A stretch of 64,000 nucleotides of DNA, taken from positions 154,790 to 218,789 of the forward strand of contig JAJZJS010000001.1 of NCBI GenBank assembly GCA_021810025.1, read 5' to 3'. The notes beneath the pieces were generated by a model, which was not told the DNA's origin, did not search any database, and saw only the letters and a program-made list of their open reading frames with translations. Made by a program: the position numbers and the translations under genes. Origin of the DNA: a bacterium. Lineage in GTDB: Bacteria; Patescibacteriota; Saccharimonadia; Saccharimonadales; UBA4665. This document shows, piece by piece, positions 9,790-26,282 of the stretch. How positions within the stretch are numbered: position 1 is the first letter of the stretch; every line of letters begins with the position of its first letter.

Positions 9790-10788
9790 TTGCTTCATTT
9801 AATCTTAATAAAAATGTATCCTAATTTTAAAAAAGATAGACCCTTATTAATTCTTGCTCCAATGGATGATGTAACGGATAGTTCGTTCCGAAGTATTGTT
9901 AATCTGTGTTGCCCGCCAGACATTTCTTTTACTGAATTTTGTAATGTTGATGGTCTCAATAGTTCTGGCAAAGATCGACTTAGGGTTAAACTTGATCATT
10001 CTAAAACTGAGACCAATTTAATTGCTCAGCTCTGGGGCTTAAACCCTAACAATTTTTATCAAACGGCTCAAGAAATAATTCGAGGAGAATATGGGAAGTT
10101 CGTGGGAGTTGATCTTAATATGGGTTGCCCCGATAAGACGATTGTTAAAAACGGAGCGTGTAGTGCGCTTATTGAGAATAGAGACCTTGCCTTAAATATT
10201 ATAAAAGCTACTCAAAAGGGGCTTAACGGGAAGTTACCTCTTAGTGTTAAAACTAGGCTAGGTACCAGTAGCATAGATTATTCTTGGCACAAATTTTTGC
10301 TCGAACAAAATTTAGATATGCTTATAATACATGGACGAACGAGGTTAGAAATGAGTAAAGTTGCTGCTCATTGGGGAGCTATTAAGAAGATTCGAGAACT
10401 ACGTGACGAAATTAGTCCCTCAACCCTAATAATTGGTAATGGAGACGTTACAAGTTACGATCAAGCTCTTAGCTTAAGCCATAAATATCAATTAGATGGT
10501 GTTATGGTAGGGCGTGGAATTTTTAATGATCCCTATCTGTTTAGTCCTCAAGAAATATGGGAACAAACTAGTCCTCCCCAAAAGATTAAACTGTATTTAA
10601 GACATGTCCAGCTATTTAATAAAGCTTGGGGAAATAATAGACCTGTCTATATCCTTAATAAATTTTGCAAGGTATATATCAATAATTTTCCGGGTTCAAA
10701 GGAGCTCAGAGAACAATTAATGCAAGCTAAAGATATCATTGATCTCCAATCTAAGCTCAGAACTATTCTAGATACTCTAAAAAAGTAA
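9790..10788 (+). CDS. dus: tRNA-dihydrouridine synthase
   Basis: Dus motifs LILAPMDDVTDSSFR, catalytic-Cys region DLNMGCPDKTIVKNGACSAL, and HGRT. The likely true start is ATG 9814 (MYPNFKKDRP...). Confidence 0.85.
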   Translation: MLHLILIKMYPNFKKDRPLLILAPMDDVTDSSFRSIVNLCCPPDISFTEFCNVDGLNSSGKDRLRVKLDHSKTETNLIAQLWGLNPNNFYQTAQEIIRGEYGKFVGVDLNMGCPDKTIVKNGACSALIENRDLALNIIKATQKGLNGKLPLSVKTRLGTSSIDYSWHKFLLEQNLDMLIIHGRTRLEMSKVAAHWGAIKKIRELRDEISPSTLIIGNGDVTSYDQALSLSHKYQLDGVMVGRGIFNDPYLFSPQEIWEQTSPPQKIKLYLRHVQLFNKAWGNNRPVYILNKFCKVYINNFPGSKELREQLMQAKDIIDLQSKLRTILDTLKK

Positions 10789-10974
10789 AAATTGAATTTG
10801 TCGGCAAGTAAATTAAAACGACTCTCGCGGATTAATTAGATTATGAGTTGTGCTTGTGCTATATCCAATCAGTGAAGAGGTTATCTTAATGAGGCATATT
10901 ATATTTCGAGTATTGAAATTTGATTTTTTAAAGATAATTACAATATAGTAAGGGGTATACTAAAAATACAATAA

Positions 10975-12441
10975 ATGAATCAAAATCCACTCGAACCACA
11001 AAATGTCCCCAATGAAGATAAGAGCTTGTTAAGTCCAATTAATTCTGTCCCAGAGGAAGGTTTTTCATCTGACACCAAAGAGCAGTCCTCATCCATAGAA
11101 TCTTCACCTTCAGTTTTGTCACCACTAAACAATGAGCTGGATAAAAAAAGTCCTGAGTCGTCTATAACAAGTTACAGCGCGAACGATGTCCAAAAAGTAC
11201 GAAAAAAAGTTAAACTAAAATTAATAATTCCCATCATTCTCGTCATCTTATTAATAGGTTTAGTCTATGGATACTTTGGTTATTATATGAGTCCTAATAC
11301 AATATGGAATAATAGTTTAGGCAATGCATCTATTGGATATAATAAACTAGTAAATTATTTCAATGCAGGATCGCGTCAACATTATTCTGGTGTTAATATC
11401 AGCGGAACGTTTAATTTACAATCAGGTACCAATCACTATAACGGCGTCGTAAATATTCAAAGTGAGGGTCAAACATCGCTAGCTACAATAAATCTTGATC
11501 TAGGTTTAGGTAAAGTTGAGCTCAATGAACGAAGCCTTCCCGCGACAGGATCTCCAGATCCCAATGTTTACCTCCAAATTAATGGAATTAATCAATTCAA
11601 TAATTATTTTTCGGCTTATGCACCACTTTTAGATAATTTAAACGGGCAGTGGGTAGAAATTGATCACAATATAATCGCTGATGCAGTAAGCCAATCGACC
11701 AAAAATCAAACGTCAAATTTGCTCCCGACATGGTCTAATATTGGATCATTTTTATTAACAACAGACTTAATCAACAAGAAGTATCTTTTCAGTACAAATA
11801 AATCCGATGCGGTATTAATAATAAAGAAAAATTATGGTGCACAAAACATTAACGGTATTTATGCCGAGCATTATTTGGTTGGATTTAATAAAATCAATGC
11901 CAGATTTTATCTATCTGCTCTTTGCAACGCTTACATGAATAGTAGCCTAGGAAATTATCTTAAACAAAACACAAATAGCTCATCGACCAACAATAGCTCA
12001 ATTTGTAATACTTTTGCCGACAGAGCTAATAGTTTAAATAATGCGGACACTTTCCAGCTTTGGGATGACGTCAATAGTCGTATACCTTATATGATTAGAT
12101 TCACTTCCAATAATAATCCATTAGAAAATTATATAGATGTCGGCTTAGATCAAAACGCTTCTAATAACTATCCGTTTTTTATTGAAGCGATAGGTAAAAC
12201 AGGTAATACAACGATACATTTATTGTCCAATATTACATTAGACACATCAAATAGAAGTATTGTTGCTGGTATTAAGGTTGCTGATGGAAGTACCATTTTT
12301 AACGGTAGTTTTAGTTTTTTGCCAAGCAATAAAACAATAAGTACGCAAGCGCCAACTGCTTCTGTGCCCTTGACCACAGAATTAAACAATTTAAACCTAG
12401 GTGCTTTAGCTAGTACTCTTCCTGTTGGTAAAGGCAACTAG
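10975..12441 (+). CDS. hypothetical membrane-anchored extracytoplasmic protein
   Basis: 488-aa ORF with a disordered S/E/P-rich N-terminus, the TM helix LIIPIILVILLIGLVYGYFGYY and an N-rich ectodomain. Confidence 0.65.
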   Translation: MNQNPLEPQNVPNEDKSLLSPINSVPEEGFSSDTKEQSSSIESSPSVLSPLNNELDKKSPESSITSYSANDVQKVRKKVKLKLIIPIILVILLIGLVYGYFGYYMSPNTIWNNSLGNASIGYNKLVNYFNAGSRQHYSGVNISGTFNLQSGTNHYNGVVNIQSEGQTSLATINLDLGLGKVELNERSLPATGSPDPNVYLQINGINQFNNYFSAYAPLLDNLNGQWVEIDHNIIADAVSQSTKNQTSNLLPTWSNIGSFLLTTDLINKKYLFSTNKSDAVLIIKKNYGAQNINGIYAEHYLVGFNKINARFYLSALCNAYMNSSLGNYLKQNTNSSSTNNSSICNTFADRANSLNNADTFQLWDDVNSRIPYMIRFTSNNNPLENYIDVGLDQNASNNYPFFIEAIGKTGNTTIHLLSNITLDTSNRSIVAGIKVADGSTIFNGSFSFLPSNKTISTQAPTASVPLTTELNNLNLGALASTLPVGKGN

Positions 12442-19361: not shown

Positions 19362-19473
19362 AGACTAGCTTCTATTAACTGAGTGAGGTTGGACATTCTT
19401 AATTTCGGAATAATTATAGCTCTAATGTGACTTAGTGTTAATTTTTTCAATTCTATAAAGTAGGTTTGAATTC

Positions 19474-19572
19474 ATGAGCGTGATAGGAACGAATTGGAAC
19501 CAAATTAAGTCCGAATTAATAACTATGAGGGAAATAGTTAAGACAGTTAGAGGAGAACAATACTATGTTTAG
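19474..19572 (+). CDS. 32-aa micro-ORF, paralogue 1 (MSVIGTNWNQIKSELITMREIVKTVRGEQYYV)
   Basis: Hand-translated. A second copy at 20676-20780 conserves the peptide pattern although the DNA has diverged after the first 28 nt. Confidence 0.35.
   Translation: MSVIGTNWNQIKSELITMREIVKTVRGEQYYV
19478..19505 (+). repeat. 28-nt perfect direct repeat, copy 1 (GCGTGATAGGAACGAATTGGAACCAAAT)
   Basis: Identical to 20683-20710. Confidence 0.9.
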
Positions 19573-19574
19573 TT

Positions 19575-19808
19575 TTAGTTTATTTCGAGTATAATTTTTA
19601 GTTTTTCTTTGACTTCATTGAGTTTTGCTTCTGTAATTACTCCAAGCTCTCGTTTTATCTTAGCCTTATCAAGTGTTGCTATTTTGTCTGGACGAATAAA
19701 ACTATTAATTACAATTGATCCAACATTATTTAGTATGATAAAGGAATGAACAATGATGATATTGAACATAATGCTGTTTTGTGAATAAGGCGATCTAGCA
19801 ATAAACGT
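19575..19808 (-). pseudogene. MazF/PemK-family toxin remnant (5'-truncated)
   Basis: The C-terminal block SFIRPDKIATLDKAKIKRELGVITEAKLNEVKEKLKIILE matches the MazF pattern (q)iRtlDk.Rl.k.lG.ls...l..v. The N-terminal 25-30 aa, including the conserved G-D/E region, are missing, and the frame closes at 19809-19811. Confidence 0.55.
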
Positions 19809-19874
19809 TTACTTATAAATAAGTTTGCCTCCATCAATGATTATCCGTCACCCCAATATCCTATTATTATTTTT

Positions 19875-20474
19875 ATGGCAGGTTCTCCAGGAGCAGGACA
19901 ATCTGAATTCGTAAAACAATATAAAAAGTCTGTAGAAATAGTTGTGGGTTCACCGCCAGTAATAATTGATCCAGATGCTATTAGAGAAGACTTGCCTGGT
20001 TATACAGGTGCCAATTCGTATATTTTCCAAAGGCCAAAATCAATAGTTGTTGATGATCTTTTCCATTCGGTTTTAAATAATAATCAAAGCGCAATCATAG
20101 ATAGTACCTTTTCAGAATTTACTCGAGCTAAGCATAATATTGATAAAGTTTTAATTAAGTACCCAGTTGTAAGCATTTCTTATATATTTCAGCATCCGCT
20201 TATTGCATGGCATTTTACTCAGATTAGAGAAGCGGTAGAAGGTAGAAATATAAGAAAAATTGATTTTATAAATAAATTTTTAGGGGCTAGAGAAACCGTA
20301 AACAGAGTAAAGAAAGCATATGGAAAAAAAGTTCAACTAAACTTAGTTTTAAAAGACTATAAGGATACCCAATCTAATAAAGCTGTTGAAAAAGTATTTA
20401 ATAGCGTAAGTAATGTTAAAGAATGCATTGATTTTCCGTATACTAAAGAAAGTTTGGAAAGGTTATTAAAATGA
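19875..20474 (+). CDS. zeta-toxin-like P-loop kinase, probably inactive (Walker A Lys replaced by Gln, N-terminus missing)
   Basis: PIIIFMAGSPGAGQSEF corresponds to the zeta/PezT Walker A G-x-x-G-x-G-K-S/T but carries Q. It is followed by IIDPDAIREDLPGY and AIIDSTFSE. The frame is open upstream only to 19785, with no upstream start, and abuts the MazF remnant head-to-head. Confidence 0.5.
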   Translation: MAGSPGAGQSEFVKQYKKSVEIVVGSPPVIIDPDAIREDLPGYTGANSYIFQRPKSIVVDDLFHSVLNNNQSAIIDSTFSEFTRAKHNIDKVLIKYPVVSISYIFQHPLIAWHFTQIREAVEGRNIRKIDFINKFLGARETVNRVKKAYGKKVQLNLVLKDYKDTQSNKAVEKVFNSVSNVKECIDFPYTKESLERLLK

Positions 20475-20615
20475 GATTACTACAAAGTAAAAAACAAGAC
20501 TTCCTGAAATTACCAAAAAAAAGAACAAAGAAAGCTACTTCTTAAGGCGGCTAAGTTTGCTAATGCTGAACAAAAAAGGCTCGAAAACAAATATTTACGG
20601 CTTCAGACGCAGTAA
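20471..20615 (+). pseudogene. small basic ORF interrupted at an A8 homopolymer, start coupled (ATGA) to the zeta-like gene
   Basis: Frame 1 reads MRLLQSKKQDFLKLPKKRTKKATS* (stop 20543-20545). After the A8 run (20515-20522) the +1 frame reads EQRKLLLKAAKFANAEQKRLENKYLRLQTQ* (stop 20613-20615). Loss of one A would fuse them into a protein of about 47 aa. Confidence 0.35.
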
Positions 20616-20675
20616 AAATAGTATTATTCTATAACCCTAAAATAGGTTAATTAAACTAATTAATACTATCTGTTA

Positions 20676-20780
20676 ATGGTAGGCGTGATAGGAACGAATT
20701 GGAACCAAATAAAACGAGAGCTGATAGATATGTACCAAATAGCTAAACAGGTTAGAAAAGAAACTCTAGTAAATGTATGA
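20676..20780 (+). CDS. 34-aa micro-ORF, paralogue 2 (MVGVIGTNWNQIKRELIDMYQIAKQVRKETLVNV)
   Basis: Hand-translated. It shares VIGTNWNQIK.ELI.M..I.K.VR.E with the ORF at 19474-19572. Confidence 0.35.
   Translation: MVGVIGTNWNQIKRELIDMYQIAKQVRKETLVNV
20683..20710 (+). repeat. 28-nt perfect direct repeat, copy 2
   Basis: Identical to 19478-19505. Confidence 0.9.
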
Positions 20781-20945
20781 GTGAATATACATAAACCATG
20801 GATAATTATCCAAGTGGAAAATATTTATTAGGAAAAGAATTAAAGATGTTCAATGATTTAGTTAATAAAACAAACAATTGGCACTAAGGTGGAGAGATTT
20901 GACAAAAATCTTTACCCTAAACTCTCCAATAGAAAAATGGTTAAT

Positions 20946-21638
20946 TTATAAACTTTCACAATTGTTAATTCCTTGTTGAATTTGATTTAATTCAGTTGTC
21001 AAAGAATTTATAGCACTACTTAAAGAGGCATATTGATTACTATATGCTTGAGTTATTTCACCGGCAGTTGCTCCTGAATAGCCACTTTCTTGATTTGCTG
21101 CATTAGGAAGATTTGCCAAAGAGTTTTCGGTTGATGTTAATTGCTGTTCCAAGCTCGAAAAGTTAGAATAATTCGGTATGTTATTTAGGCAAGATAGTAT
21201 TGCAGTTTGGCTTTGATTTGTTGTTGAATAAGTACTTAGGTTTTGTTGATCAGTATTGTATTGTTGTTGATATTGTTGATATTGTGCTTCTTCTTGTTGA
21301 ATCTCTTGCTCCATCTGATTATAGTTGTTTTGTTGTTGATTTGCAGCATTTTGAGCATTGAGTGTATCTTGGTTGGCCTGATCTTGGTATTCTTGTGCCA
21401 GAGCTTTATCTTGTTGATATTGTGCTTCTTCTTGTTTGAGAGTAGATTGTTGATTGGTTGGTGAGGGGGTAGTAGAGATAGAATTTTTATTTATTTCATT
21501 TGGTTGTTGACTTTTCTGATAGTGAGAAGAGGTATCTTTAATATTTACTGTGCTTGGACTATGGATATGAGTCAGTAAAGTACTGATAACCAATAATGAT
21601 AATAATGCTCCTCCAATAATGCCAAAAACTTTTTTCAT
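20946..21638 (-). CDS. hypothetical N-terminally anchored Q/N-rich coiled-coil protein with internal repeats
   Basis: 230 aa with the signal/TM helix IIGGALLSLLVISTLL and a Q/N-rich body containing a duplicated QEEAQYQQ unit. The underlying DNA repeat GTTGATATTGTGCTTCTTCTTGTT occurs at about 21273 and about 21413. Confidence 0.6.
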   Translation of the reverse strand: MKKVFGIIGGALLSLLVISTLLTHIHSPSTVNIKDTSSHYQKSQQPNEINKNSISTTPSPTNQQSTLKQEEAQYQQDKALAQEYQDQANQDTLNAQNAANQQQNNYNQMEQEIQQEEAQYQQYQQQYNTDQQNLSTYSTTNQSQTAILSCLNNIPNYSNFSSLEQQLTSTENSLANLPNAANQESGYSGATAGEITQAYSNQYASLSSAINSLTTELNQIQQGINNCESL

Positions 21639-21809
21639 AAAATACTTTGTACTTCTATAGTGTAATTCTAAATAAATTGTACTCCAGATATAACATTTTT
21701 CATATTTTCAAACGATTCATTTTCTATTATTTTATGATTTGTCATAATCATTCGGTTAAATTGAATTTAAAAAAGCTGTTATTTATGATTAAGAATAACA
21801 TGGTATCTT

Positions 21810-22745
21810 TTAAAACACCTCTCTTGGTCGTGAACCGCTAGCTTTACCAATAATCTTTCTTTCCTCCATATCTTCTAAATATCTAGCGGCCTGGCTATAA
21901 CCAATCCCCAATTCTCTTTGTAACAAAGAACTACTTGCTATTTTATATTCTCGAACAATCTTAATTGCATCTTCTAGCGTTGCATCTTTTCCCTTAAGTC
22001 TATTAATCAATCCTCTCTCTTCCATTATTTTAACTAATTCCAATGCCCTAGACTTCGAAATATGCAATCTATTTACCAAGTTATCGACAGATGGTCTTCC
22101 TACTGAATTTAGCATATTTATAGAATCTTCAATGTCTATTTCTAACTCTGATTTTTTTTCTTTTACCATTTTTAGATATTTATCATTTAAACTTTTCAAT
22201 TCAGCATGCAATTCATTAAGAATACTCCATCTACTATCACCCATGGAATTAACATATGAATCGTCAGATGGAAATGGTGAATCTAAATTATATAACGTTC
22301 TCATTGTTGCCAAATTATTTGTGTAAAAACCTCTTTTTTCAAAACCATCCCTTACTTTTACATATTCATTTTCTATTTCTTTTGTACGCTCTTCAATGTT
22401 TTTTATATACATCTCTTGAATGTTTACGAGTTCTTTTTTAGTATATAATTTTGGCTTATCGTCATTAATGCTTTGTATTTTTTTAGTTTTAAATAGCTCG
22501 TTTTTTAATCCTTCCAAACGTATTTTTTCTCTAAGCACTTCAATTTGGTTTGTTCTTAAATTACTTAAAAAGTCTAAATATGCCATATCACATTCTTGTT
22601 GGGTCAGAGAGTCTTTATAGGTCTGAGAATTTAAGTATTTTTGTTGAGCTATGGCAATATTATTATTAGAGTTCTGTTGTATTGCTCTATAAATAAAATA
22701 TCCTACAATTATTACTGCCAGAATTAACCAAAACATAATATCCAT
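21810..22745 (-). CDS. membrane-anchored coiled-coil protein with a C-terminal FtsK-gamma winged-helix domain and no translocase motor
   Basis: The C-terminus DATLEDAIKIVREYKIASSSLLQRELGIGYSQAARYLEDMEERKIIGKASGSRPREVF matches the FtsK gamma pattern (aS.SllQR.l.iGY.rAar..d.mEe.giig...gsk.ReV) closely. It is preceded by a second wHTH-like segment, and there is an N-terminal TM helix FWLILAVIIVGYFIY. No Walker A/B motifs are present. I chose the start at ATG 22745; the track ORF extends to 22811 and would overlap the divergent gene. Confidence 0.7.
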   Translation of the reverse strand: MDIMFWLILAVIIVGYFIYRAIQQNSNNNIAIAQQKYLNSQTYKDSLTQQECDMAYLDFLSNLRTNQIEVLREKIRLEGLKNELFKTKKIQSINDDKPKLYTKKELVNIQEMYIKNIEERTKEIENEYVKVRDGFEKRGFYTNNLATMRTLYNLDSPFPSDDSYVNSMGDSRWSILNELHAELKSLNDKYLKMVKEKKSELEIDIEDSINMLNSVGRPSVDNLVNRLHISKSRALELVKIMEERGLINRLKGKDATLEDAIKIVREYKIASSSLLQRELGIGYSQAARYLEDMEERKIIGKASGSRPREVF

Positions 22746-22796
22746 GCTTATAATACAACTGAAATTAATTTTAATAAATAGTATAATTAAGGTGTT

Positions 22797-23207
22797 ATGA
22801 CTATAAGACAAAGAAAAGTAATAAAAGAATTAGTGGAATATGGTGGAACTATGTCCTCTGCCATGAGAAAAGCAGGATATTCTGATGCTATGATAAAAAA
22901 TCCTCAAAAAGTAACCAAATCTAAAGGCTTTAAAGAAATTTTAGAAATTATGGGAATAAATGATAATGCTCTTGCTAAGACCCTTAAGGAAGGTCTTGAG
23001 GCTGTTAAGATTGTAAAATTACGTAATACATATACTGCTATACCAGACTTTTCTACCAGACATAAATTTCTTGAAACGACATTAGAACTTAAGGGATATA
23101 TAGGTCGTAATTCTAAACCTAATTTAGATAATGTTAATGTTGTTTTTGTGAATAATATTCCCAGACCTTCTTTTGATAAAAAAACAGTAAAACAATTAGA
23201 AAAATGA
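22797..23207 (+). CDS. phage terminase small-subunit-like HTH protein
   Basis: The N-terminus IRQRKVIKELVEYGGTMSSAMRKAGYSDAMIKNPQKV follows the Terminase_2 pattern (L..kq..F..eY...gn...A...AGYS...A......l..n..V). Length is 136 aa, with TATAAT and AAGGTG signals upstream. Confidence 0.45.
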   Translation: MTIRQRKVIKELVEYGGTMSSAMRKAGYSDAMIKNPQKVTKSKGFKEILEIMGINDNALAKTLKEGLEAVKIVKLRNTYTAIPDFSTRHKFLETTLELKGYIGRNSKPNLDNVNVVFVNNIPRPSFDKKTVKQLEK

Positions 23208-23238
23208 ATGATCCTGTTGATAACTCCATTTTAAGCTT

Positions 23239-24018
23239 ATGATAGGTTCATTATCTGAGCCGAAGGATGCAACGCTCAATGATGTTATTAAGTTGCTAAA
23301 AATAGATTATGATATTGGATTGATTGTTAAGAAAAGAGTACTAAAAGATTGCAATAATTATTTAGATGGGACATATAGTCCTAGGATAATTAGGGGTGGC
23401 GGTAAACAAGACCCTGAACTTGAATTTATCTATCGTAATTGGTTTGAGGGAGTATTGGCTACTCTCAATTTTCCTATTATCCCACATAGGTACTTACATG
23501 ATTTTTCGTCGACTAGTTCTAGCATTAATCTTAATCTTGCACTTTCAGCAAATAGTTTTTCACAAGGTGAAAATTTAATTAACAAATCATTCGACGCTGC
23601 TCTAAAAGCTTTATCGATAATAATAGATAGACTTAAAAAAGAAGAATCTTCAAATATAAAAATAGTAAATCTTAAAAAGATAAAACAAAGCATTTATATC
23701 AATATTGAGCCTGACGGGGTTGATGTTAAATTACATGAATTTGAAGAGGGTTCGCCCTTAGAGCAACTTTTTGATTATGTTTATCTTCATCAAAACGAAA
23801 TAATAAGTGGAGACCAAATAAACCTAGATACAAGAGGATACAGCAAAAAACGTCATCTTTCAGAGGATTTTAGGGCTATGGGATTTAATAATAAACTCAA
23901 GAAATTATTCTTTTCAATATGTACTTCTATGGAAGTAAAGATGAATATAAAATCAAATATTGCTTCGGAGAATCTCAAAGAACTTTTAATCGGACTCAAA
24001 TCGGATTTAAACAAATAG
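23239..24018 (+). CDS. hypothetical protein
   Basis: 259-aa ORF with no recognisable motif; island cargo. Confidence 0.55.
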   Translation: MIGSLSEPKDATLNDVIKLLKIDYDIGLIVKKRVLKDCNNYLDGTYSPRIIRGGGKQDPELEFIYRNWFEGVLATLNFPIIPHRYLHDFSSTSSSINLNLALSANSFSQGENLINKSFDAALKALSIIIDRLKKEESSNIKIVNLKKIKQSIYINIEPDGVDVKLHEFEEGSPLEQLFDYVYLHQNEIISGDQINLDTRGYSKKRHLSEDFRAMGFNNKLKKLFFSICTSMEVKMNIKSNIASENLKELLIGLKSDLNK

Positions 24019-24111
24019 TTTTGCTAAATTAACACTTTAATTATGTATTAGACCAAGATTTAAAATCGGACTTTCCTAACTAAGCTTATCTAATAACCTA
24101 TAGTCGGTAGT

Positions 24112-24423
24112 ATGACAAATGGCATTAAAGAAATACTTAATAATTCTCAGTTGGCAAATGATTCATTTAAAAAAAGAGATTTAGTTAAGAATGTTTCACT
24201 TGATGAAGTCGATAGATTATCGGATGAACTAGTTAGGATCTACAAAAACCCTAGTTATAAAAAGTGGTATTGCAAAGCAATTTATAGGTTTGGAGCTCAA
24301 CAAATCCGTGATTGGATGGCTCGAGCAAGCGATGGTAAATACCCAGAGAGATTATTTACTACTTACGTAAATCAGGCCAATGGTTTTATTAGGGGAGATG
24401 GACAAAATGTTGATCTCCGATAA
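24112..24423 (+). CDS. hypothetical protein
   Basis: 103-aa ORF. The segment KKWYCKAIYRFGAQQIRDWMARASDGKYPERLF feels like replication- or DNA-binding-associated helical modules, but I cannot assign a family. Confidence 0.5.
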   Translation: MTNGIKEILNNSQLANDSFKKRDLVKNVSLDEVDRLSDELVRIYKNPSYKKWYCKAIYRFGAQQIRDWMARASDGKYPERLFTTYVNQANGFIRGDGQNVDLR

Positions 24424-24562
24424 ACCAATTATAACCATTAAAGAAGCCAGAAAATTATTAGGAAAAGATTTTAGGCATTTAGCAGATGGACAAATAGAGG
24501 ATTTGATAGCCTTATTAAATAGTATTGCTATAGATAAAATAATTGATTCGGTTCCAAATTAG
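24380..24562 (+). CDS. hypothetical small protein directly upstream of the recombinase (candidate directionality or regulatory factor)
   Basis: ORF of 52-60 aa; the more likely start is ATG 24407 (MLISDKPIITIKEARKLLGK...). It overlaps the end of the previous gene. Its position immediately 5' of int is the only functional hint. Confidence 0.4.
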   Translation: MVLLGEMDKMLISDKPIITIKEARKLLGKDFRHLADGQIEDLIALLNSIAIDKIIDSVPN

Positions 24563-24608
24563 AAATCGATAGATGCAAATAAAAGACTAATAATGTTAAA
24601 ATGATTCC

Positions 24609-26153
24609 ATGAGTGTAGGAATCATCTATACAAGAGTTTCAACAAAAGAACAGGCAGAGAAACGATTAAGTTTAGATAACCAAGAAAAAGAGTGCAAAGC
24701 ATTTGCATATAAGCAACAAAATATACAAATTCCAGATATAAATATATTTAGTGATAGAGGAGAATCTGCTAAATTTGCAGATCGTCCTGAACTACAGAGA
24801 ATGCTCCAATTTGTTAAAAACAATAAGGGAAAGATAGAAGTTTTATATATCTGGAAAATCGATAGATTAGCAAGAAACTTAGGAGACTATTATGGGATTA
24901 AGGTTGCTCTTGGGAAGTATGGAGTAAAGATAGTATCGGTTACAGAGCCCATAGACGATGATCCAGTGGGAAGATTTCTAGAAGCCATATTAGCTGCTGC
25001 AGCTCAATTTGATAATGAAATTAGAGCCATTAGAAGTGTAACAGGCATGAGACAAAGAGTTGAACAAGGAGAATGGCCTCATAGTGCACCGATAGGTTAT
25101 ATAAAACGAAACAGGAGCGTAGTTATTGATTCAATATATGGATCTAAAGTACAAGATGTTCTTAATAAGTTTGCAACAGGACTTTATAGTGTAACCGATA
25201 TTTCTCGTTATGCATTCGAGATAGGCATTAAAACAAAGAGCGGTAAGCCAAAATCATACGAGGCAATGAAAAAGCTCCTCATAAATTTCTTCTATTCTGG
25301 TTATACTAAAAATAAACTTAGCGATAAGGTTATCAAGGGCAGACATACTCCCTTAGTTGATGAAGAAATTATTTATAAGAATATAGATATTATCAACAAA
25401 AATAAAAAAATTATCGTAATAAAAGGAGATGATCTTTATTCTCTTAGAGGAACATTGCTTTGTACTAATTGCGGAAATAAATTAACGGCTAGTGCACCAA
25501 GAGGAAGAAGTAGAAACTACTCATTATATCAATGTGGCCGTAAGACGTGTACTAGAGCCATTACAGGTAAAAAAGCTAGCGTAGACGTAGATAAAGTTCA
25601 TAAACAATTTAGAGAGCTTCTAGAAGCTCGTAGACCGTTAAATAAAGGAATTGCAAGACTGTACAAGACCTTAGTAATAAAAGCATGGAATGATGAGTAT
25701 GGAAAAGCTCTAGAAACTTCTACACAAGTTAATCGTGAAATAGAGACGTATAAAGAGCTTAGATTCTCGACAAATCAAAAATTTATTGCAGATAAGATTA
25801 CCGAAGAAGACAAGAATGAACAAATAAATAGATTGGATGAAAAAATAGAAACTTTAGAACAAGAAAAGGTCGAAATGGACAGTTACGTTAAAGAAAAAGA
25901 ACAGGTAGTAGATGAAGCTATGACTTTTATTCAGACTCCCGATATTTTCTGGAACCGAGCCAGTACAAGAAGTAGGCGAGCTATTCAGTCATTACTTTTT
26001 CCATCCGGAATACCTTATGATTTTGAAACCGGATTTGGAACCACAGAAGATATAGATTCCTATCTGTTATTAAACAAAATTACTGAAAAAAAAGCAAAAA
26101 AAGACGATTTGGTAGCGACGAGTGGACTTGAACCACTGACCCCAGGCTTATGA
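24609..26153 (+). CDS. large serine recombinase (serine integrase)
   Basis: The resolvase catalytic domain reads VGIIYTRVSTKEQ...DRGESAK...IDRLARN. A recombinase domain follows, then a Cys-rich zinc ribbon (LLCTNCGNKL...YQCGRKTC) and a long coiled coil. Total length is 514 aa, and the last 44 nt are antisense to the tRNA. Confidence 0.9.
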   Translation: MSVGIIYTRVSTKEQAEKRLSLDNQEKECKAFAYKQQNIQIPDINIFSDRGESAKFADRPELQRMLQFVKNNKGKIEVLYIWKIDRLARNLGDYYGIKVALGKYGVKIVSVTEPIDDDPVGRFLEAILAAAAQFDNEIRAIRSVTGMRQRVEQGEWPHSAPIGYIKRNRSVVIDSIYGSKVQDVLNKFATGLYSVTDISRYAFEIGIKTKSGKPKSYEAMKKLLINFFYSGYTKNKLSDKVIKGRHTPLVDEEIIYKNIDIINKNKKIIVIKGDDLYSLRGTLLCTNCGNKLTASAPRGRSRNYSLYQCGRKTCTRAITGKKASVDVDKVHKQFRELLEARRPLNKGIARLYKTLVIKAWNDEYGKALETSTQVNREIETYKELRFSTNQKFIADKITEEDKNEQINRLDEKIETLEQEKVEMDSYVKEKEQVVDEAMTFIQTPDIFWNRASTRSRRAIQSLLFPSGIPYDFETGFGTTEDIDSYLLLNKITEKKAKKDDLVATSGLEPLTPGL

Positions 26154-26186
26154 GTCCTGTGCTCTAACCAGCTGAGCTACGCCGCC
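26110..26186 (-). tRNA. tRNA-Met (CAT), elongator type, with non-Watson-Crick pairs in the acceptor and anticodon stems
   Basis: The reverse complement is GGCGGCGTAGCTCAGCTGGTTAGAGCACAGGACTCATAAGCCTGGGGTCAGTGGTTCAAGTCCACTCGTCGCTACCA. The D and T stems are perfect, while the acceptor stem has G1.U72 and G5.U68 and the anticodon stem has A31.G39. The D arm and variable loop resemble E. coli metT as I recall it. Confidence 0.8.
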
Positions 26187-26282
26187 CCAAGTCTTCATTA
26201 TATTAAAAAAGTGTTCATAAACCCAAAGTTTTTTCTTATAGATTTTTGAAGGATTTAATTGAATTAACTTTGATTAATTAGA

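Follow-up and report, generated by a model that had tools for sequence, protein, structure and literature searches.

An integrative element at tRNA-Met of a Saccharimonadales genome, with an orphan small-terminase homolog and a serine recombinase gene spanning attP: a candidate minimal phage satellite

Phages and islands that rely on large serine recombinases (LSRs), such as phiC31, Bxb1, A118, SCCmec Ccr, and XisF, usually target protein-coding genes or intergenic sites, and their attP lies outside the integrase open reading frame (ORF). An attP inside a gene is said to occur in the mycobacteriophages BPs and Brujita, for which Broussard et al. reportedly described in 2013 a tyrosine integrase with attP in the repressor gene, so that integration alters the repressor C-terminus. 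Among phage satellites, the PLE (elements that resemble phage-inducible chromosomal islands) of Vibrio cholerae are the only classical reference members with an LSR (PMC9618062). The VEIMEs, mobile elements of an integrative kind that are encapsidated in virions, are small integrative satellites of marine bacteria that are packaged as concatemers, some of them carrying serine recombinases and some a small terminase subunit (TerS) closest to the TerS of co-occurring phages (Eppley et al. 2022, PMC9618062). A passage of the same paper relates some tycheposons to satellite recombinases (PMC9618062). Here, we analyze a 5.43-kb element inserted at a tRNA-Met gene within a 64,000-nucleotide stretch of DNA (hereafter, the window) from a bacterium of the order Saccharimonadales (Patescibacteriota, UBA4665; GCA_021810025.1, contig JAJZJS010000001.1, positions 154,790 to 218,789 of the forward strand). 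The whole window sits in a 703-kb genome (G000), which was compared with those of 4 other species, giving a genus set of five genomes (G000 to G004).

The element carries an orphan TerS homolog, with no large terminase subunit (TerL) beside it, and an LSR gene whose 3′ end contains attP. That it is a mobile element is firm. An orphan TerS combined with recent crossing between species is best explained by packaging into the capsids of a helper phage, and a minimal, helper-dependent phage satellite of a patescibacterium is the explanation that we favor, with about as much doubt as confidence.

An integrative element at the 3′ end of tRNA-Met

The boundaries of the element are defined by an isogenic pair, the genome G004 and the public contig L113 (GCA_023474145.1), whose flanks are 100% identical over 5,256 and 4,528 bp and of which L113 holds an extra 5,419 bp. 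The 10-mer GATTTGGTAG, composed of the four bases downstream of the tRNA and the terminal CTACCA of the tRNA itself, is found at the empty attB and at both attL and attR of the occupied site. Since the core uses the tRNA's own terminal CTACCA, tRNA-Met stays intact; that of the window is 92-96% identical to the tRNA at the empty sites in G004, G001, and G002. The L113 insertion comprises, in order, a short conserved segment (listed as a “micro-ORF” repeat in an earlier note made from the window sequence), a gene for a Q/N-rich protein, two small minus-strand genes, a homolog of the 136-aa TerS-like protein, genes for proteins of 258, 102, and 60 aa, and the recombinase gene. In the window, the hexamer TGGTAG stands at 20677-20682 (attL) and 26110-26115 (attR), and a short core shared by attL and attR, together with an empty attB in a relative, is what a discrete insertion of an LSR integrative element is expected to leave. 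A displaced 3′ fragment of the tRNA at the left end, in the style of tyrosine-integrase islands, is not present, because the crossover lies within the last six bases. A 3.4-kb unit (22748-26115), drawn from an edge at 22747/22748 that is sharp in three genomes (G003, G002, and L113), conflicts with the isogenic pair, which puts attL at 20677 and makes this edge an internal cassette junction, and contigs C13 and C28 of G002 were ruled out as a clean empty/occupied pair because their flanks differ.

The element is found in three of the five genus genomes, with G004 and G001 lacking it, and its absence from a strain with 100%-identical flanks rules out a syntenic region conserved across related genomes, the alternative envisaged in the earlier note. 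The copy in G003 matches positions 22747-26186 and 20386-21787 of the window at 95% nucleotide identity, and three of its proteins are nearly the same as in the window (98% amino acid identity for the recombinase and 97% each for the proteins p259 and p103, listed below), whereas the flanking genes have diverged considerably (FtsH, 74% nt and 85% aa; pseudopilin, 69% nt and 78% aa; TilS, 46% aa). The G002 copy is 78.5% identical to that of the window, and its recombinase 89%. In window coordinates, the features of the region are the following.

19390-19446 (no strand): conserved chromosomal motif of 57 nt that marks the insertion hot spot's original tRNA-distal flank
19474-19572 (plus): older degenerate attL, repeat copy D1a, with the attP P′ arm and 32 remaining codons of the recombinase tail ORF (MSVIGTNWNQIKSEL...)
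19575-19769 (minus): C-terminal fragment of a MazF/PemK toxin gene (Pfam PF02452, E = 3.3e-6; phrog_1936), part of the older remnant
19875-20474 (plus): N-terminally truncated zeta-toxin-like gene (Pfam PF06414, E = 1.7e-21), part of the older remnant
20676-20780 (plus): attP P′ arm and recombinase tail ORF (MVGVIGTNWNQIKRELIDMYQIAKQVRKETLVNV), in frame with the recombinase across the core
20677-20682 (no strand): attL core TGGTAG of the intact element, identical to the hexamer of attR
20946-21638 (minus): Q/N-rich membrane-anchored or secreted cargo protein of 230 aa, conserved within the element
21788-22747 (minus): swappable cargo cassette with an FtsK-gamma gene (ORF 21810-22745/22811; PF09397, E = 2.3e-23)
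22797-23207 (plus): orphan TerS homolog of 136 aa, assigned by profile search, phage gene context, and AlphaFold2 (AF2) model
23239-24018 (plus): 259-aa protein (p259), with homologs only in copies of this element
24112-24423 (plus): 103-aa protein (p103), semi-conserved in the element family
24380-24562 (plus): small conserved protein (p60; about 51 aa from the likely start at 24407) with a conserved motif
24609-26153 (plus): large serine recombinase, 514 aa when integrated (PF00239, PF07508, PF13408, phrog_95)
26106-26115 (no strand): attR core GATTTGGTAG, i.e., 4 nt downstream of the tRNA plus the tRNA-terminal CTACCA
26110-26186 (minus): tRNA-Met(CAT), the integration target, intact (ARAGORN; Rfam RF00005, 63 bits)

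Searches of the region's proteins against Pfam, PHROGs, NCBIfam, and PADLOC confirmed the gene list of the earlier note, both in position and in the identities given, and matched no capsid, portal, TerL, relaxase, or Rep family, in keeping with the lack of virion genes remarked there. An Rfam scan of the region gave no family besides tRNA. The AT-richness that had been judged by eye agrees with the computed GC content of 31.2% for 19362-26153, where the genome averages 36.0% (z = -3.2; in the lowest 0.2-0.4% of windows of the same size), and tetranucleotide usage is deviant as well (top 2% for the genome). The region is thus deviant, as proposed, but it is not the single island that had been described: it is a composite of an older remnant (about 19474-20675) and the intact 5.43-kb element (about 20680-26115).

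The recombinase displays the domain order of LSRs, with an N-terminal catalytic resolvase domain (PF00239, E = 3.2e-31), a recombinase domain (PF07508, E = 3.8e-6), and a zinc ribbon (PF13408, E = 3.6e-4), and it matches the integrase family phrog_95 (E = 3e-73). The last 44 nt of its gene overlap tRNA-Met on opposite strands, the last 15 codons crossing attR into the tRNA, and the integrated gene ends in ...KKDDLV-ATSGLEPLTPGL followed by a stop, a tail encoded by the complement of the tRNA. Across the core, the same frame stays open into the attL segment, where it reads ...KKDDLV-GVIGTNWNQIKRELIDMYQIAKQVRKETLVNV before its stop, and the inferred attP junction of the window element contains ...AAAAAAGACGATTTGGTAGGCGTGATAGG... 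Read in this way, attP is embedded in the 3′ end of the recombinase gene, and integration would replace a conserved 33-aa tail of the 534-aa free-circle form (...LVGVIGTNWNQIKREL...), which is left behind at attL, with 15 tRNA-encoded residues. Both the length of the tail ORF and its peptide are kept in the window repeat copies D1a and D1b, in L113, and in L127, at DNA identities of only 74-82%.

A search of the protein collection with the reconstructed C-terminus of the recombinase as query retrieved P0165, a 533-aa recombinase that is 75% identical to that of the window and ends in a homologous tail (...LVGMVESNWNQIKRELITMWQIVNEIRKESPVTV). Its gene lies on five contigs (L134-L138, from ENA and Logan assemblies) whose terminal direct overlaps equal the assembler k (141, 141, 55, 30, and 30) and each of which represents exactly the same 4,499-bp unit, circularly permuted and with zero mismatches among units. 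Such a pattern marks a free circle or, equally well, a tandem array, with attP (TTTGGTAG) inside an unbroken recombinase gene; the contigs do not come from a virion fraction. Also encoded on the unit are a protein of 304 aa that bears CxxC pairs near its N-terminus, a Cys-rich secreted protein of 140 aa, and two small membrane proteins, none of which has a Pfam match. The attP junction of the window element was not found in pattern scans of JGI metagenome contigs or IMG/VR. In five other genera of the order (L118-L122, i.e., G019, G037, G030, G035, and G029), recombinases of 27-36% identity all run into the 3′ part of a tRNA-Glu or tRNA-Met gene, where they terminate after 41-44 nt, with L-V encoded across the CCA, indicating that an intragenic attP at the tRNA end is a trait of the whole clade.

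The small-terminase homolog and its neighbors

The earlier note had recognized an AGYS-type TerS N-terminus in the 136-aa protein and had named a generic helix-turn-helix (HTH) regulator as the alternative. A word-indexed search retrieved only 12 close relatives, with no Pfam domains among them, and an exhaustive profile search yielded 2,408 representatives, 110-220 aa long and aligned over most of the profile. Among 62 sampled family members, 13 match phrog_51, terminase small subunit (best E = 1.1e-5), and one matches Pfam Terminase_2 (PF03592). Relatives are encoded on 158 stretches of IMG/VR viral contigs, with 30-51% identity to residues 2 to about 110-126; the next, overlapping ORF after the phage homolog is TerL by Pfam in 8 of the 10 cases examined, and an ORF of TerL size (at least 380 aa) directly follows 62 of 77 viral-contig homologs. 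A first AF2 model, based on 12 sequences (predicted local distance difference test score, pLDDT, of 68) and without significant Foldseek matches, was superseded by a model from the deeper alignment (pLDDT 82.8), in which a predicted N-terminal HTH is followed by a helical part with long helices and a hairpin, as in the TerS-type architecture. Residues 1-53 of this model superpose on the DNA-binding domain of SF6 G1P (4zc3 and 2cmp) with template modeling (TM) scores of 0.71-0.72 and a root-mean-square deviation of 2.0-2.3 Å, and TerS entries predominate among the weak matches in the viral structure library. The location of the phage members directly upstream of TerL and the fit to SF6 G1P thus support the AGYS-type assignment and not a generic HTH regulator, and the 136-aa protein very probably belongs to a genuine TerS family.

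In a maximum-likelihood tree, the recombinase-linked TerS form one clade (support 100/96) nested among phage TerS, with the recombinase context confirmed for eight of its thirteen members, and all close relatives with a readable context stand at the left end of a recombinase-bearing element. The layout is TerS, 228 aa, 58 aa, and a recombinase ending in tRNA-Glu in L031; TerS, three minus-strand genes including one for an ImmA-like peptidase, 214, 103, and 52 aa, and a recombinase ending in tRNA-Glu in L117; and only TerS, a 62-aa ORF, and recombinase in L123, the smallest variant. L112 and L028 are copies broken off by a contig end or an insertion sequence (IS); in L028, the element is disrupted by a DDE_3 IS transposase just downstream of TerS (10753-11760). 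The conserved core of the sub-family is the orphan TerS, a roughly 50-aa protein adjoining the recombinase, and the recombinase, with swappable cargo in between. The TerS proteins of the window and L117 are 84% identical, while their recombinases are 29% identical and have different tRNA targets. Between the window and G003, TerS (P0003) stands out with 73% identity against 97-98% elsewhere in the element. The divergence is mosaic, with about 65% identity over roughly the N-terminal 100 residues and no change in the last 36, which places a recombination breakpoint inside terS. The conservation of TerS and this mosaic pattern point to selection on TerS and modular exchange rather than decay.

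Of the cargo, the Q/N-rich protein lies within the 5,419-bp L113 insertion and retains 94% amino acid identity in G003 and 64% in G002 and L113. The FtsK-gamma protein (21810-22811, minus strand; likely ATG start at 22745) combines a transmembrane segment and a coiled coil with a C-terminal FtsK-gamma winged helix, and its cassette is replaced by unrelated genes, of 184 and 395 aa in G003 and of 117 and 139 aa in G002 and L113. G003 also has an additional 74-nt copy of the promoter and initial eight codons of TerS (L023, 9374-9265), which is 81% identical to positions 22748-22821 of the window. This copy is joined to the final codons of the recombinase tail ORF, corresponding to window 20754-20799, and looks like a scar of recombination between element copies in the cargo region. 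Homologs of p259 form only three clusters; the protein of 214-230 aa that takes the corresponding place in the tRNA-Glu variants was considered as a counterpart and is unrelated (hhalign probability 0.1). The p103 protein is 74% identical in L113 and 42% in the tRNA-Glu variant L117. For p259, p103, and p60, no family, defense-system, or PDB match was obtained (Pfam, PHROGs, NCBIfam, PADLOC, PDB). The motif KPIITIKEARKLLGK...LSD..I of the small protein recurs in every checked variant with a recognizable homolog (G003, L113/L114, L117, L112, L031, and the 4,499-bp circle), and its position makes this protein of about 51 aa a candidate recombination directionality factor or excisionase. L117 additionally carries, at 473-1580, an ImmA/IrrE-like M78 peptidase (PF06114) and two small neighboring ORFs that are not in the window's copy; the peptidase could be a damage- or signal-sensing induction switch.

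The older remnant begins with a second attL. The repeat copy at 19474-19572 forms an 80-nt direct repeat with 20683-20762 (74% identical, the first 28 nt identical) and is collinear with the L113 attL junction, and its core is degraded, with ATGA where TGGTAG is expected. The MazF/PemK fragment covers only positions 70-109 of the 109 in the PF02452 profile, and the zeta-like gene covers positions 21-178 of the 199 in PF06414, about 20 N-terminal positions being missing; its Walker A motif (19875-19910) reads GSPGAGQSE, where the expected K is a Q, consistent with an inactivated toxin. G003 retains the zeta gene as fragments only (92-95% identity). Since they lie between two attL copies, the MazF and zeta fragments are read as remains of an earlier occupant of the same site, and decayed attL-attR remnants of a similar kind were found in other metagenome contigs by a looser junction scan (L127-L130). 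The 57-nt flank motif stands directly before the older attL, 6.66 kb from the tRNA in the window, and in the empty-site genome G004 (77% identity) it is only 26 nt from the tRNA-Met 3′ end. Kept at this identity while its surroundings differ, the motif has a short palindrome (ATTCTAAG/CTTAGAAT in G004) that may be a terminator or a protein-binding site. On the other side of the tRNA, 96 nt only (26187-26282) separate tRNA-Met from tilS in the window, and a minus-strand gene of about 264 aa, absent from the window, stands between the two in all four of L023, L024, L025, and L027; in L113-L116, the gene at this place is Pfam TauE.

Satellite, island, or episome

Several properties of the element are those of satellites, namely an integrase without virion structural genes or TerL, a putative packaging-redirecting gene in the form of a TerS homolog that belongs to one clade, and, as in VEIMEs, a monomer of a few kb with an integrase, integrated in host genomes (5.43 kb here and 2.5-5.4 kb in variants). 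TerL (PF03237, PF04466, and PF03354) was detected in none of the five genus genomes and was detected in control genomes, and tblastn with phage proteins revealed neither TerL nor portal in the window's own genome. Other routes of transfer are not apparent: no conjugation gene was found in the genus and no relaxase family matched among the region's proteins, and the ComEC Competence domain (PF03772) is missing from all five genus genomes and present in 10 of 14 controls. A pseudopilin operon adjoins the island although the genus genomes have no detected ComEC domain.

The intact element is inserted by its own LSR at CTACCA, the six terminal bases of tRNA-Met. According to the mechanism that we propose, a helper-phage infection would set off its excision. 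TerS would then bind a pac site on the element and recruit the large terminase of the helper, such that multimers of the small genome would be packaged by headful into helper capsids; in the new cell, the long recombinase form encoded by the circle would insert the element at tRNA-Met. The data show the boundaries and mobility of the element, its att sites, the split recombinase gene, the membership in the TerS family, and the lack of TerL; within the scheme, the directionality-factor role, the helper dependence, and the packaging are what we infer. A more far-reaching proposal, which we consider doubtful, is that these elements are the smallest phage satellites and the first in the candidate phyla radiation (CPR), with a kit of TerS, a roughly 50-aa directionality factor, and a tRNA-end serine integrase, with replication, capsid, and motor supplied by the helper, packaging as multimers, and an integrase that senses its own state through the tail swap, biasing integration or excision. 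A full-text literature search found no description of satellites in Patescibacteria.

The satellite-type element suggested in the earlier note is thus partly supported and stays in the lead, since the TerS family, the non-syntenic occurrence, and the deviant composition each go against an outcome that would have refuted it. A number of observations weigh against it. First, direct searches with the 136-aa protein gave no match in Pfam, PHROGs, NCBIfam, PDB sequences, or GenBank phages (tblastn), so that its link to TerS runs through its family, by profile search and gene context, and not through a model match of its own; the Foldseek E-values of the TerS model are not significant (the domain is short), and of 401 genomes sampled from the order only 3 encode this TerS subfamily. 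Second, no replication, regulatory, or helper function could be linked to the element. No Rep, primase, helicase, or partition family, such as a satellite with its own replication module (primase or replicase plus ori) would have, was found in any variant, no repressor or AlpA-type regulator was recognized in the window's copy, and a genome of 5.4 kb would need multimers to fill a capsid. Neither a helper phage, to which the closest phage TerS, at only 45-51% identity, give no lead, nor a pac site or a virion-borne copy was found, and in IMG/VR viral contigs there was neither a copy of the element or a related recombinase nor a recombinase relative near the phage TerS homologs. Third, the decayed toxin genes, which had been counted as part of the island, both lie in the older remnant, outside the intact element, and the 92-95% similarity between G000 and G003 continues for some 600 nt beyond the functional attL on its left side, reaching window position 20076 within the zeta remnant. 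The block exchanged between the two lineages is therefore larger than 5.43 kb and may have been a composite whose limit was the outer attL, at a time when that site had not yet decayed. Finally, the 4,499-bp relative carries the recombinase and the small protein and no TerS, and no TerS or TerL was detected by tblastn within 12 kb upstream of the L118-L122 recombinases, which means that the recombinase module works without TerS.

These TerS-free relatives, the close one with its circularizing 75%-identical recombinase module as well as the distant ones, speak for a non-satellite LSR island that integrates itself, the rival that survives best, albeit as a rather unlikely one. On this account, a protein of TerS descent would have taken on a new role, as a regulator that binds DNA or as an architectural factor, controlling, e.g., the expression of cargo or recombinase or helping synapsis, and transfer would be passive, by generalized transduction, vesicles, or lysis. 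The lack of a satellite-typical replication or regulatory module agrees with it, as do the plain HTH of the N-domain, to which the sole strong fold match is confined, and the location of the gene at the left end of the element beside a promoter-like region facing divergent cargo genes. However, the alignment with phage TerS spans nearly the full length of the protein (residues 2-126), beyond the HTH, and a single TerS clade is kept down to 44% identity while the recombinases of these elements are only 20-29% identical. The exchange of the first roughly 100 residues against an unchanged stretch of 36 at the C-terminus suits a protein that binds DNA with one part and a partner with the other, and no non-packaging role of TerS homologs was found in the literature searched.

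The circularly permuted contigs bear on another rival, an integrative mini-plasmid or episome that alternates between a multicopy circle and the tRNA-integrated state, is replicated by p259 or p103, and carries TerS as an incidental passenger. Circular or tandem contigs recovered identically from independent assemblies at three k values imply many attP-spanning reads, and p259 and p103 (the latter with its 42% conservation in the tRNA-Glu variant) could hide a replication function. Even so, we regard an episome as improbable: no Rep, primase, or partition family was detected in any variant, the smallest variant consists of TerS, a 62-aa ORF, and recombinase only, the five circular contigs may stem from only two or three related samples, and a circle leaves cross-species transfer unexplained without conjugation or competence genes. 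That the element is what an inert, immobile prophage of the phiC31 type (int-attP-terS) left behind once all that lay between terS and int had been lost is scarcely credible, for although the recombinase-attP-TerS order of the inferred circle is the expected product of a large internal deletion and decayed remnants do accumulate at this tRNA, the isogenic pair with its clean presence and absence between 100%-identical flanks largely refutes it, the element is 95-98% identical across species with core genes 70-85% identical, every ORF is intact, and the same miniature layout recurs with other recombinases and tRNA targets.

Such identity of the element between species with so much more divergent core genes means that something moves DNA between these tiny-genome cells, for which the simplest candidate is an element that carries an orphan TerS and borrows capsids. 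If the satellite interpretation is correct, the range of phage satellites comes to include the CPR and gene sets far smaller than those of phage-inducible chromosomal islands (PICIs), and still-undiscovered helper phages are to be expected. Regardless of the satellite question, the exact attB, attP, attL, and attR are now at hand for a serine-integrase clade that targets tRNA 3′ ends, and a recombinase gene that appears to be rebuilt by excision represents a compact design of possible interest to users of serine integrases as tools.

Comparison with known systems

With phiC31, Bxb1, A118, SCCmec Ccr, and XisF, the element shares the resolvase, recombinase, and zinc-ribbon domains and the short identity between att sites; as for phiC31-type systems, recombination would be unidirectional and a directionality factor is expected. 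Unlike in those systems, the whole recombinase clade of the element targets tRNA 3′ ends, with the ORF crossing attP. The intragenic attP and a gene product that depends on the integration state recall BPs and Brujita, with the difference that the element would swap the tail of the recombinase itself. The available text on the tycheposons of Prochlorococcus (bioRxiv 10.1101/2020.12.28.424599) portrays small tRNA-associated elements of streamlined genomes, with no conjugation genes, a likeness by description only.

Among satellites, PLE resemble the element, again by description only, in that the direction of excision is set by a separate small factor, which is encoded by the phage in PLE, whereas the candidate factor here is self-encoded; PLE are also much larger (about 18 kb) and have their own replication initiator and several anti-phage effectors. 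With the Staphylococcus aureus pathogenicity islands (SaPIs) and other PICIs, the element has in common a site-specific island with its own integrase, a TerS homolog, variable accessory cargo, and no TerL, capsid, or tail genes. SaPIs and PICIs measure about 10-15 kb and use a tyrosine integrase, compared here with 5.4 kb, or 2.5-5.4 kb among the variants, a serine integrase, and a patescibacterial host, and no primase-replicase, Stl/AlpA-type regulator, or capsid-remodeling genes were found in the element. VEIMEs are defined by their recovery from virions and belong to hosts of a different phylum, whereas the element is known from genome assemblies, and, unlike VEIMEs, it targets a tRNA 3′ end and has attP inside the recombinase gene. 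Nevertheless, both are very small integrative elements, and the packaging of concatemers seen in VEIMEs is the very mechanism that a 5.4-kb element would need.

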